Positions 17,937-21,181 of a stretch of 64,000 bases of DNA are shown piece after piece. Position 1 is the stretch's first letter; every line of letters begins with the position of its first letter. The translations under genes were made by a program, and so were the position numbers. Below the pieces are notes generated by a model. That model saw only the letters and a program-made list of their open reading frames with translations. It was not told the origin of the DNA and ran no database searches. Source of the stretch: an uncultured Spirochaetales bacterium (GTDB lineage: Bacteria > Spirochaetota > GWE2-31-10 > CAYYKD01); NCBI GenBank assembly GCA_964608985.1, contig CAZSQU010000002.1, positions 50,849 to 114,848 on the forward strand. Reading direction: 5' to 3'.

Positions 17937-18225
17937 TGAGGCAACAATCGATAAATTACTTGATATGTCAAGAATAGACATAAGACCTGACACAAGAAAT
18001 AAATTTATTAAACAAATAAAGGATATTGTTTTATTTGTAGATCAGATTGGAAAGGTTGATACATCTTTAATTGAGAATAGAGAGTCGGTGTTTGATACTG
18101 CAGATAGGTTTAGAGATGATAAGATCGTACATTTCTTTTCACAATCAGATCTAAGAAAATATACAAATAATCTTATCGATGGTTACTATGCTGTACCAAA
18201 GATTATTAATAAAGACGATCAATAA
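17929..18225 (+). CDS. gatC: Asp-tRNA(Asn)/Glu-tRNA(Gln) amidotransferase subunit C (GatC)-like
   Basis: 98 aa. VDTSLIE...RFRDD...IDGYYAVPKII resembles the GatC pattern (VDT..VEP...REDE...DGY..VP.I). Overlaps the helicase stop. Confidence 0.55.
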   Translation: MIDEATIDKLLDMSRIDIRPDTRNKFIKQIKDIVLFVDQIGKVDTSLIENRESVFDTADRFRDDKIVHFFSQSDLRKYTNNLIDGYYAVPKIINKDDQ

Positions 18226-18259
18226 CAAAAAAATATTTAGAAAAAAAATAATATAGATA

Positions 18260-18288
18260 TTGACAAATCAATAAAAAAAGATTATTTA
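18260..18288 (+). promoter_or_regulatory. putative sigma70 promoter for tRNA-Phe (TTGACA - 17 nt - TATTTA)
   Basis: Consensus -35, acceptable -10, ~24 nt upstream of the mature tRNA 5' end. Confidence 0.35.
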
Positions 18289-18311
18289 TTTATTGTAACT
18301 TTTAGTTATTT

Positions 18312-18384
18312 GCCCTTGTAGCTCAGTCGGTAGAGCAAAGGACTGAAAATCCTTGTGTCAGCGGTTCAATTCCGCTTGGGGGCA
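18312..18384 (+). tRNA. tRNA-Phe (anticodon GAA)
   Basis: Cloverleaf readable: D-arm GCTCAGTCGGTAGAGC, anticodon loop CTGAAAA in a GGACT/ATCCT stem, T-arm AGCGG-TTCAATT-CCGCT. Discriminator A, CCA not encoded. The acceptor stem has three G-U pairs as read. Confidence 0.85.
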
Positions 18385-18388
18385 AATA

Positions 18389-18416
18389 AAACCACCTTAT
18401 ATGGTGGTTTTTTTAT
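18389..18416 (+). terminator. rho-independent terminator after tRNA-Phe
   Basis: CCACC-ttatat-GGTGG hairpin followed by TTTTTTT. Confidence 0.6.
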
Positions 18417-18508
18417 TTCCGGTCAAGCAATCCAATTCGAAAAAAAATCGTTTTGTTCCGAAAAAAACAACTGAAATCAGTTTAATAAATTATGCTACAA
18501 TTACGATC

Positions 18509-19172
18509 AATTAGGGGGCGTTATTATGAAAAGATTTCTTATTACTATTTTTATGGCTGTTACGATTTTTAGTTATTCCAACACAACCTCAACTCCAAAC
18601 TATGAAGAAGCAAAGAACTTTGCATACGCGAGTTTAGGTTGTCACATCGGAGGGAGTGTATTGGAGAGTGTTGGAGCAGTGCCGATTTCAATTTTTACTC
18701 TCGGTGGTTTAGGAAATTGGATGTTTGCACCACCATTTATTATTTTTCCTGTATGTTTTTTTAGCGGTTTGATCTTAAACAAGATATTAGCAGGTGTATT
18801 TAGTATATATTCGAATTATCTGATATATGGAAACACCTTTCCTACAATCAATTCAGCAATTTTATATGGATTGAGCTGGATCCCGACATTACTTCTAACC
18901 ATACCGGGGTATTTTGGCGGCTTAATTAGCAGCATGCCTCATCTTGACATAGTCTTCGGAATACTGATTGGCTTGGGTACTCTTTTGTCAATCGCGGCAC
19001 AAGCGGGCAGTACTTCAATACCATTGTATGTTTTAAAGCTGTAACAGGGGCGTTATTATGAAAATATTTATTATTACTATTTTTATGGCTGTTACGATTT
19101 TTAGTTATTCCTACACAACCTCAACTCAAAACTACACAGAGGCAAAGAACTTTGCGTATGCCGGGCTTGGTT
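18509..19172 (+). repeat. tandem direct repeat: ~130-bp near-identical 5' gene segments (RBS plus first ~40 codons) at ~18509-18640 and ~19041-19172
   Basis: GGGGCGTTATTATGAAAA(G/T)ATTT...ATTACTATTTTTATGGCTGTTACGATTTTTAGTTATTCC...GCAAAGAACTTTGC is shared with only scattered substitutions. Confidence 0.6.
18526..19044 (+). CDS. hypothetical small multi-pass membrane protein (paralog A)
   Basis: 172 aa, signal/TM N-terminus MKRFLITIFMAVTIFSYS, several hydrophobic helices, GGGCG RBS. No known motif. Confidence 0.5.
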   Translation: MKRFLITIFMAVTIFSYSNTTSTPNYEEAKNFAYASLGCHIGGSVLESVGAVPISIFTLGGLGNWMFAPPFIIFPVCFFSGLILNKILAGVFSIYSNYLIYGNTFPTINSAILYGLSWIPTLLLTIPGYFGGLISSMPHLDIVFGILIGLGTLLSIAAQAGSTSIPLYVLKL

Positions 19173-19306
19173 GTATGATCACCGGAAGTGTGTTGTATGG
19201 ATTAATGGTTCCTATAGTATCTATAGGAACAATATGTGGTCTTAGTATTTATCAATTCAGTCCGGTATTTATATGGATACCAATTGTGATACAAATGGTT
19301 TTTTAA
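19058..19306 (+). CDS. hypothetical small membrane protein (paralog B, shorter copy of the upstream gene)
   Basis: 82 aa. First ~40 residues and the RBS are nearly identical to paralog A (MKIFIITIFMAVTIFSYSYTTSTQNYTEAKNFAYAGLGC). Confidence 0.45.
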   Translation: MKIFIITIFMAVTIFSYSYTTSTQNYTEAKNFAYAGLGCMITGSVLYGLMVPIVSIGTICGLSIYQFSPVFIWIPIVIQMVF

Positions 19307-19471
19307 ATCATTAATGAAATTTTCACATTGCCTCCGCTCGGTGTAAAATAAATATTCGGCTTCAGGAGTTTCAAAATCAATATCAGTTACGATAAACCGA
19401 ATATTTCCGTCGTGATGATTTCGCTCTATTTTTGCATACCGTCATAGTTGAGTATCCTTATAAATCCTCCG

Positions 19472-19651
19472 TTAACCCGCGTTATGCACGATAATCGTAT
19501 CGAAGCGAAGTAGATTGTTGATTAGCTTAGAGTTATGAAGATTTGAGACTCGCAGCATAGTAACACTATGTGAGAATCGAAAATCGAGTAACTCGTAGAT
19601 AATCAGCAAGATACAAGCTGCAGTAGAATTCTCGTGCATAATGCGGGTTAA
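19472..19651. repeat. 180-bp non-coding element bounded by 20-bp terminal inverted repeats (TTAACCCGCGTTATGCACGA / TCGTGCATAATGCGGGTTAA); MITE-like or structured-RNA candidate
   Basis: Arms at 19472-19491 and 19632-19651 are reverse complements with a single G/A difference, which is a G-U wobble if transcribed. The interior has further imperfect pairing (GTAGATTGTTGATTAGC vs GATAATCAGCAAGATAC) and small hairpins (CATAGT-aac-ACTATG, CGAG-taa-CTCG). No ORF. Confidence 0.6.
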
Positions 19652-19683
19652 TATATAAACGAAAATTTATTAAGTAGTGATTA

Positions 19684-19715
19684 CAAAAAAAGCTGCCTAT
19701 TAGGCAGCTTTTTTT
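19684..19715. terminator. bidirectional rho-independent terminator between convergent + strand genes and iadA
   Basis: AAAAAAA-AGCTGCCT-att-AGGCAGCT-TTTTTTT: perfect 8-bp stem flanked by A- and T-tracts. Confidence 0.7.
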
Positions 19716-19730
19716 AATTATAAATAAAAA

Positions 19731-20924
19731 TTAATCTTCAGGGCTTTTATTAAAATGTTCGTAGAGACCTTTTACAACAACTATGCCTTCTTTTACCATT
19801 ATTTCCCCTCCGGCAATAACAGTATCGATTTCCATATCTCTTTTAGTCATTATAACAAGATCGGCATCTTTACCAACTCTTACTCTTCCTTTATAGTGAA
19901 GTTTTAGTATGTCTGCAGGATTAGAAGTTATCACTCTTAATGCTTTCTCAAGTTCAAGTTTTTCCTGAAGAACAGCGTCTCTAAGTTCAATAAATATTGA
20001 TTTTGGCAAACCATAAGCCATTTTTATCAAATTTCCATGTTCGTCAAAATCCGGTAATGATCCGCAAGCATCCGAAGTCATCGTAATATTTTGAAGAGGA
20101 ACGCCTGATTTCAACAATTCTACGATAGCTTTAGCCGGTTTAATTTCATATTGAGGGAAATACGGATAAGAACTTGCAGTAATATCAATGAATCCTTTTT
20201 TTCCATATTCTTTTGCATCTTCAAATATATAATCATTTCTATTACAATGTGTAGGTAGGAATTGAGTAAGTTTAAGTTCGGTTGAGTTAGCAACTTCATA
20301 CAATATTTTAAAAGGGTTTCTTGCGTCTCCCATATGAAGATTAACAATGCCTGCTTTTCCGCCAAGCATTCCGCCTACTCTTGCGTGTTCACCAATTCTT
20401 GCAAGTTCTCTTACTGATGGGCAAGAAGATCTATGATCAGAAATCGCTACTTCGCCAACACCTATTATCTCATCAATCATAGCTATATCTTTTCCAACAT
20501 CACCAAGTATTGTTGGGGTTGGAACTTGATAAGATCCTGTATAGATCCAAGCAGACACACCAAGCTGTCTTAAACCTTTAGCTTTCATTAGAACACCTTC
20601 GATTGTTCTTGTAAAGCCATCAGTACCCAAGCAACCGATTACGGTTGTTATACCGCCTTCCAGCATCTGGCTAAGTTCCATGCCCGGTGTTCTCGATGAA
20701 GGACCACCTTCTCCACCCGCACCGGCAATATGAACATGTCCGTCTATAAAACCGGGTACTATAATTTTATCTTTTGCGTCTATCACCTGAATATCGACAA
20801 AATGTTCAGGGAGTTCAATTTTATCTGCAATCATAGCAATTCTATCGACTGCAAGCAGGATATCTTTTTTTCCGAGATAAGTTGGGGCATAAACTTCCCC
20901 GTTCTTAATTAGCTTCAAATACAT
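19731..20924 (-). CDS. iadA: isoaspartyl dipeptidase / beta-aspartyl peptidase (IadA, amidohydrolase superfamily)
   Basis: VPGFIDGHVHIAGAGGEGGPSSRTPG matches the IadA metal-binding region (GFID.HVH..GGGGE.GP..RTPE). ~397 aa. Confidence 0.8.
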   Translation of the reverse strand: MYLKLIKNGEVYAPTYLGKKDILLAVDRIAMIADKIELPEHFVDIQVIDAKDKIIVPGFIDGHVHIAGAGGEGGPSSRTPGMELSQMLEGGITTVIGCLGTDGFTRTIEGVLMKAKGLRQLGVSAWIYTGSYQVPTPTILGDVGKDIAMIDEIIGVGEVAISDHRSSCPSVRELARIGEHARVGGMLGGKAGIVNLHMGDARNPFKILYEVANSTELKLTQFLPTHCNRNDYIFEDAKEYGKKGFIDITASSYPYFPQYEIKPAKAIVELLKSGVPLQNITMTSDACGSLPDFDEHGNLIKMAYGLPKSIFIELRDAVLQEKLELEKALRVITSNPADILKLHYKGRVRVGKDADLVIMTKRDMEIDTVIAGGEIMVKEGIVVVKGLYEHFNKSPED

Positions 20925-21181
20925 CAGCCGCTCCTATTATTTAGTCTGTATATAAGACTATAAAATGTAGATATAGCAATCATACACAAAAAAAATAAAA
21001 TTGCAAAGAAAATTATATAAAAAATGTATGATAAGGGTGTGATTTTATTTTTTTGAGTAATTTTAACATTCTATTGTTTATATTTTTATTATCGTTTTTT
21101 TGAAGAAAATTGAATAGCTATTATTCAGGTTTACCCAAAATCTAAAATTGCACCCGTTAGTGATGGTTAATAGTTTTAGTC

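Follow-up and report, generated by a model that had tools for sequence, protein, structure and literature searches.

A 172-bp palindromic repeat downstream of a tRNA-Phe gene is very probably a non-autonomous IS1380-family MITE inserted at TTAA

The 64-kb stretch of DNA analysed here (the window) contains, between convergent genes, a gap of 424 nt (19307-19730) that is the largest non-coding interval between ORFs of at least 80 aa. A tRNA-Phe gene (18311-18385) lies upstream of it, as do two ORFs, at 18526-19044 (172 aa) and 19058-19306 (82 aa), that share a near-identical hydrophobic N-terminus. A tandem partial duplication (18515-18642 and 19047-19174, 89% nucleotide identity over 129 nt) spans the start and the signal-peptide-like N-terminus of both, and neither ORF gave a match in Pfam. 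The nine neighbouring ORFs that were scanned include an amidohydrolase, whose homologues are named beta-aspartyl peptidase, ornithine aminomutase, GatC, a UvrD/PcrA-type helicase, a MiaB-like enzyme, a protein with a SelB wing domain and two membrane proteins. Between the 82-aa ORF and the element described below there are 165 nt, which hold a 13-nt inverted repeat (AAATATTCGGCTT / AAACCGAATATTT) with a 31-nt loop at 19350-19406, and a promoter-like sequence, TTCACA-16-TAAAAT, is present at 19322-19349. On the other side of the element there is a bidirectional intrinsic terminator, at which (19685) homology with the iadA cassette of a sister MAG (L141) stops. An earlier note on this DNA had described the gap as the largest non-coding one, and had pointed to the nearby tRNA-Phe gene, to tandemly duplicated membrane-protein genes upstream and to a bidirectional terminator just past the element; these descriptions agree with what was found. 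The gap contains the following features:

19472-19475, no strand: left target-site duplication, TTAA, assigned from the comparison of a filled and an empty site and from flank statistics
19476-19491, + strand: left 16-bp terminal inverted repeat, CCCGCGTTATGCACGA, assigned from the family alignment, the family consensus matching an insertion sequence (IS) end in L128 at 16/16 positions
19492-19631, + strand: AT-rich interior of 140 nt, an imperfect rod-like hairpin with its apex at about 19562-19564, assigned from the fold
19632-19647, - strand: right 16-bp terminal inverted repeat, TCGTGCATAATGCGGG, assigned from the pairing of the arms and the family alignment
19648-19651, no strand: right target-site duplication, TTAA, assigned from flank statistics and from the end of homology with L139 at 19652
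19685-19715, no strand: bidirectional intrinsic terminator hairpin in host sequence outside the element, with perfect 15-nt arms and A7/T7 flanks

The arms that delimit the 180-nt segment, TTAACCCGCGTTATGCACGA at 19472-19491 and TCGTGCATAATGCGGGTTAA at 19632-19651, are complementary at 19/20 positions, while the number of chance pairs of 20-mers with at most three mismatches expected from 100 shuffles of the window was 0.00. The outer TTAA on either side is assigned to a target-site duplication and excluded from the inverted repeat, because a pair of filled and empty sites and the statistics of the flanking sequences, both described below, indicate this. As the TTAA lies outside the repeat, the element proper is 19476-19647, a 172-bp sequence with TTAA on either side and with 16-bp terminal repeats CCCGCRTTATGCACGA, which in the window are complementary at 15/16 positions. 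The left repeat differs from the family consensus CCCGCATTATGCACGA at one position only, with G for A at the 6th position (19481), a variant found in 5 of 46 aligned sequences, the window copy included. The ‘perfect’ 20-bp inverted repeats of the earlier note therefore stand as to arms and coordinates and fall as to perfection (19/20, the outer four nucleotides being the duplication and the repeat 16 bp), and its description of the single difference between the arms as G-U compatible holds for the + strand.

The element is an imperfect palindrome over its whole length, which is why it forms a long hairpin. The + strand of the 180 nt folds at -81.3 kcal/mol, against -37.9 +/- 3.8 in shuffles (z = -11.3), and the - strand at -64.7 kcal/mol (z = -8.5), so that the + strand is the better folder by 16.6 kcal/mol. 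The minimum-energy fold is a single continuous imperfect rod with one apical hairpin, in which the biggest internal loop is 3x3 nt, rather than the previously proposed stem enclosing two small hairpins. An ORF of 55 codons does cross the element on the - strand (19639-19472), contrary to the earlier statement that none exists. This ORF is not conserved: only 21 of 73 family members have it intact, and length variants of 185/186 nt disrupt the frame. A coding role for its 55-aa product is rejected on that ground. The earlier report that there is no transposase held for the whole window, and tblastn found none of the IS1380 family in its 64 kb. With a length of 172 bp plus the duplication, and with no conserved coding capacity, the element falls well within the size of a miniature inverted-repeat element or MITE (under about 600 bp).

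The earlier note had named a search for additional copies as a check on its reading, and such copies are widely dispersed. A scan of one genome per species (the GTDB species representatives) found the exact 20-mer end on 10 contigs, all belonging to the MAG Deltaproteobacteria bacterium CTSoil_058 (GC ~60%) and in no other species representative. The 19-mer end is present on at least 120 metagenome contigs, which have a GC content of 51-65% among those listed and come mostly from wetland and soil samples. At least 96 pairs of arms delimit elements, with a modal length of 185-186 bp and further classes of 197 and 208 bp, and rod-folding repeats of 186-208 bp bounded by the same end occur on the CTSoil_058 contigs and the metagenome contigs alike. 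Family copies are found in both orientations beside unrelated housekeeping genes, some of them directly on a stop codon. The 16-bp repeats are conserved across the family. Mean column identity is ~90% among copies of 185-187 bp, suggestive of a recent expansion. All of the GC-rich copies fold as rods, at -100 to -136 kcal/mol. The interior of the window copy is only ~52% identical to the GC-rich consensus and aligns with it above chance in the forward orientation only (alignment score 42 forward and 20 reverse, compared with 18.5 +/- 7.8 and a maximum of 41 in shuffles).

Several other forms were seen on these contigs. Very short derivatives of 54-81 bp consist of little beyond the two terminal repeats (L076 2800-2869, L117 2008-2072, L118 1245-1298, L132 2563-2643 and L135 728-782). 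Composites of 320-475 bp hold a second, unrelated repeat nested in MITE copies (L003 3267-3599, L006 from 7296 onward, L009, L010 and others); the inverted ends of this repeat resemble GAGGCAGGG(A/G)GGTCT.T..GGCAA and it looks like a second MITE family of the same high-GC hosts. Decay is exemplified by L030 (690-790) which, compared with L062 (1230-1500), lacks most of the element and ~35 nt of flank through a deletion between two GTCGC direct repeats, leaving a solo left end. A 1103-bp insertion in L007 (3003-4105), relative to L053 (2732-2735) in contigs that are otherwise 99.7% identical, has ends unrelated to those of the MITE. Searches by blastn with the element and with the GC-rich consensus found nothing relevant in plasmid and phage collections, a 16-mer scan of viral contigs gave five unpaired matches that were judged to be chance, and the repeat sequence was not found among the papers searched in full text. 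Between the arms in L103 there is no transposase, the ORFs there encoding an FAD oxidoreductase and other unrelated proteins, and the protein clusters beside arms comprise sensor kinases, ABC transporters, SerA and similar proteins with no transposases among them.

Evidence that the repeat has moved came from two contigs of the same metagenome that are 91-94% identical. The empty site (L046) reads GGGCTAGTAGAAT and the filled site (L032) reads GGGCTAG[CCCGC...GTGGG]CTAGTAGAAT, so that the difference between them is exactly the element and a 4-bp duplication (CTAG). The flanks of at least 92 non-redundant elements are in agreement with this, with TTAA/TTAA in 37 and CTAG/CTAG in 8, the TTAA count being inflated by a search pattern that required TAA. 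Where the same non-palindromic 4-mer flanks both ends it is always in direct orientation (four cases, CTAA/CTAA twice, ATAA/ATAA and TTAT/TTAT) and never inverted. The target may be described as roughly YTAR, and mostly TTAA. A duplication of TA, as in the IS630 type, was also considered; TTAA alone cannot discriminate between the two, and the CTAG pair of filled and empty sites and the direct flanks favour 4 bp. An empty counterpart of the window's own insertion was not found, the sister MAG being without the whole of the 18216-21179 segment. A role for the proximity of the tRNA-Phe gene in the insertion is not demonstrated; the element targets TTAA/CTAG tetranucleotides.

Most unpaired arms proved to be truncated MITEs. 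The arm in L128 is an exception and belongs to an IS of 1683 bp (94-1776) that has CTAA flanking both ends. One end of this IS, CCCGCATTATGCACGA at 94-109, is identical to the MITE repeat at 16/16 positions and is the end distal to the transposase; the other reads TCGCGAATTATCCGGG (1761-1776). An open frame of 481 codons lies on the strand opposite to the 94-109 repeat, homologous transposases being ~458 aa, and its product exceeds the cut-offs both of PF13701 (E = 2e-126, 422 bits, cut-off 34.7) and of the IS1380 equivalog model NCBIfam NF033539 (369.7 bits, cut-off 180), which places it in the IS1380 family. Homologues of this transposase with 68-92% identity are numerous and most are on IS-sized contigs. 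Ten complete IS copies of ~1.68 kb were recovered in eight flanking contexts, with transposases 68-85% identical; their ends read CCCGGA(A/T)AAT... and TCG(T/C)G(C/A)ATAGTCCGGG or TCACGAATAATGCGGG, and they are flanked by 4-bp duplications, CTAG/CTAG at nine loci and TTAG/TTAG at one. At the same end as in L128 these related copies match the MITE repeat at 13-14/16 positions. In one case, at L158, an IS1380-family element (116-1806) adjoins an IS110-family transposase gene (1813-2789) in what is a cluster of ISs.

The IS1380 family as defined in ISfinder comprises elements of 1.55-2.0 kb with ends beginning CC and direct repeats of 4-5 bp, ISEcp1 being a further example. IS1247, another member, is 1672 bp long with 16/13 inverted repeats and a 5-bp direct repeat (PMC3281130). 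The partner ISs described here are alike in size (1683-1687 bp), in having a single DDE transposase each, in their CCC ends and in their 4-bp duplications; the ends are of the form CCCGC... and CCCGG..., and a duplication of 4 bp is common to 11 IS copies and the MITEs. The window element is unlike them in that it lacks a transposase gene, shares only the 16-bp end and has two ends of the transposase-distal type. Beyond the 16-bp repeat the halves of the MITE are weakly similar to the transposase-distal IS end only (z ~2.7), and because its interior resembles the IS end so weakly the MITE is not a simple internal-deletion derivative of the IS. The autonomous element with a 16/16 end is that of L128; no partner was found in the window's own organism, an IS1380-type transposase being absent by tblastn from the 64-kb window and from ~50 kb of other low-GC contigs of the community, mostly of the sister MAG. 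We infer that the MITE is mobilised in trans by a transposase of this family.

The window copy and the GC-rich copies have different hosts. With 34% GC, and with Spirochaetota MAGs (at most 46% identity) as the best named relatives of its PcrA and Bacteroidales (~70% identity) as those of its iadA product, the host of the window copy is, to judge from its sequence, not a deltaproteobacterium. Contig Ga0207193_1000123 of JGI 3300020048 matches the window at 99.85% identity. In two independent ENA assemblies made with k = 141, contigs of the right flank (L136 and L137) start at 19511, exactly 141 nt from 19651, and a contig of the left flank (L140) stops at 19613, at a distance of 141-142 nt from the element's left end. 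A further contig, L139, contains the left flank and the element and beyond 19652 runs on into other genes (DUF6652, Cpn60 and SurE), and here the end of the element reads GGGCTAA where the window has GGGTTAA. Since contigs break one k-mer length inside each end, and since L139 provides a second flank, a second copy is likely; the assemblies point, within a single population, to at least two near-identical AT-rich copies, or to a copy at which a rearrangement took place, and the element may be currently active in this host. The window itself holds one copy, and a further copy was absent from it and from ~40 kb of other low-GC contigs.

In the sister MAG (GCA_964471825.1) the genes for MiaB, PcrA and GatC are followed, 45 nt on, by the ornithine aminomutase genes (L145 7601-7645), and 18216-21179 of the window is an extra 3 kb that contains the tRNA-Phe gene, the two membrane-protein ORFs, the MITE, the terminator and iadA. 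The sister has an iadA whose protein is 93% identical at another locus (L141 7989-9249). Divergence between the two is uneven, with 65.7% nucleotide identity (59% protein) in the PcrA region and 82% nucleotide identity in the aminomutase region. An aminotransferase beside the sister iadA is intact at 401 aa in the NCBI MAG (L141 9368-10573) and is split into 163 aa and 132 aa in a JGI contig from the same sample (L142 9368-10583), which is either a pseudogene or an assembly or frameshift difference.

These data make it very probable that 19476-19647 is a 172-bp non-autonomous MITE of the IS1380 family, inserted at a TTAA that was duplicated. The MITE-like mobile repeat that was one of the two readings of the earlier note is borne out by dispersed copies, by a target duplication with an empty site, by the match to an IS1380 end and, with more reserve, by the probable copies in the same organism. 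One further reading would add to this explanation and not replace it, namely that the MITE has acquired a host role in which its hairpin, in the 3' UTR, acts as an RNase III site, as a stabiliser of mRNA or as a barrier to convergent transcription. Comparable host-level RNA roles have been reported for Correia and ERIC elements. In the window the strand with the better fold is sense to the upstream genes, and the shared terminator comes after the element. Several copies in GC-rich hosts abut stop codons, and the TAA of TTAA itself supplies a stop. The insertion is not seen in the sister MAG, where however the whole segment is missing. When events are counted, changes that preserve pairing in the top strand exceed those of the opposite kind (67 vs 25); by distinct site-states the asymmetry is not significant (33 vs 22, p = 0.18). 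Selection for the RNA or single-strand fold is unproven, and on balance such a role seems unlikely; any effect of the element at the RNA level is putative.

The same fold might instead suggest that the segment is a stand-alone gene for a structured small RNA, whether 6S-like, retron-like or of some other regulatory kind, with the terminal stem as a functional RNA helix. The stability of the fold (z = -11.3) and the advantage of 16.6 kcal/mol of the + strand over the - strand are in its favour, as is the retention of the rod over an interior that is only ~52% identical. In 52 of the 54 GC-rich copies with an orientation motif it is again the homologous strand that folds better, but these descend from one master copy and hence are not independent observations. 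The asymmetry in G-U pairs is small (5 vs 3 in the window and 6 vs 2 in the consensus), and the excess of wobble-compatible changes is lost when distinct site-states are counted, as given above. Rfam at the gathering threshold found only two tRNAs in the whole window; at E <= 10 over 19300-19740 the element was unmatched and there were only chance terminator-like matches anchored on 19685-19715, and one GC-rich family copy likewise gave no match. No convincing sigma-70 promoter was found directly upstream of the element. Copies are found in both orientations beside unrelated genes; they show target duplications, and one empty site is known. A small-RNA gene is highly improbable. The specific suggestion of a 6S-like or retron-like layout is not supported since, apart from a length of ~180 nt and a long closing stem, the element shares neither a covariance-model match (even at E <= 10), nor a large central bubble, nor an adjacent reverse transcriptase (none among the nine neighbouring ORFs) with these RNAs, and is mobile and multi-copy.

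As a MITE, the element can be compared with the known bacterial families Correia, ERIC, RUP, Nezha and Chunjie. It is like these in its small size, lack of coding capacity, terminal repeats and target duplication, in its many, mostly intergenic copies and in the stable hairpin that it would form when transcribed. It is unlike them in its distinct repeat sequence, in a 4-bp TTAA/CTAG duplication, where Correia has been reported to duplicate TA, and in having a repeat that is tied to the IS1380 family. The closest of these is Chunjie of the deltaproteobacterium Geobacter uraniireducens, which has a length of 178-235 bp, terminal repeats of 21 bp and fold energies of ~-98 to -130 kcal/mol (PMC3184786). 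In size and fold energy this is very close to the GC-rich copies and raises the question of whether the window element is a member of Chunjie. Chunjie, however, has direct repeats of 9 bp at its flanks, such as ACGACCGGT (PMC3184786, PMC6042816), against 4 bp here, and the exact 20-mer end has been found in one MAG only among the GTDB species representatives. We consider common membership to be highly improbable.

A likeness of another kind is to the eukaryotic piggyBac elements, the ends of which read CCC...GGG. The MITE family resembles piggyBac in its TTAA target, its 4-bp duplication and its 5'-CCC...GGG-3' ends, and differs in being prokaryotic and in a relaxed target that takes in TTAA, CTAG, TTAG and CTAA. 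IS1380 transposases have served as the prokaryotic outgroup of piggyBac (PMC10813416), and piggyBac is known for its specificity for TTAA and for transposition through hairpin intermediates with seamless excision (PMC7351741).

The following mechanism may be proposed for the IS1380-family MITE. Its repeats CCCGCRTTATGCACGA carry one end sequence of an IS1380 clade characterised by a length of ~1.68 kb, a DDE transposase and 4-bp YTAR duplications. A transposase of the family, supplied from another place in the genome, or from a co-resident replicon, by a full-length copy, would bind the two 16-bp repeats, excise the element and integrate it at TTAA or CTAG by way of a 4-bp staggered cut. Once inserted, the element could be co-transcribed and would then fold as a very stable RNA rod, in the window as part of a + strand transcript, within the 3' region of the 82-aa membrane-protein gene, ahead of the terminator (19685-19715).

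That hosts of 34% and 60% GC share an identical end of 16 bp marks this end as the putative binding site of the transposase, and would indicate horizontal spread of the system across phyla. A bolder extension is that the IS1380 clade and its MITEs form a piggyBac-like TTAA/CTAG system that operates across phyla and in which the fold-back structure is either required for mobilisation or selected as RNA. We regard this as distinctly unlikely. If it were true, the phyla crossed would be those of a low-GC, possibly Spirochaetota-related lineage and of the high-GC Deltaproteobacteria, with the 16-bp end identical in both, and the hairpin would have been kept while the interior was rewritten from ~65% to ~34% GC, so that the fold-back would be no passive by-product. 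For annotation, the finding means that this conspicuous hairpin belongs to a piece of mobile DNA rather than to an RNA gene. In the organism of the window, the MITE explains breaks or mis-joins of metagenome assemblies at the position of the element. More widely, it belongs to what is apparently a very abundant and undescribed MITE family of wetland and soil Deltaproteobacteria, one that is linked to IS1380-type transposases with a preference for TTAA/CTAG, as in their eukaryotic relatives of the piggyBac type.
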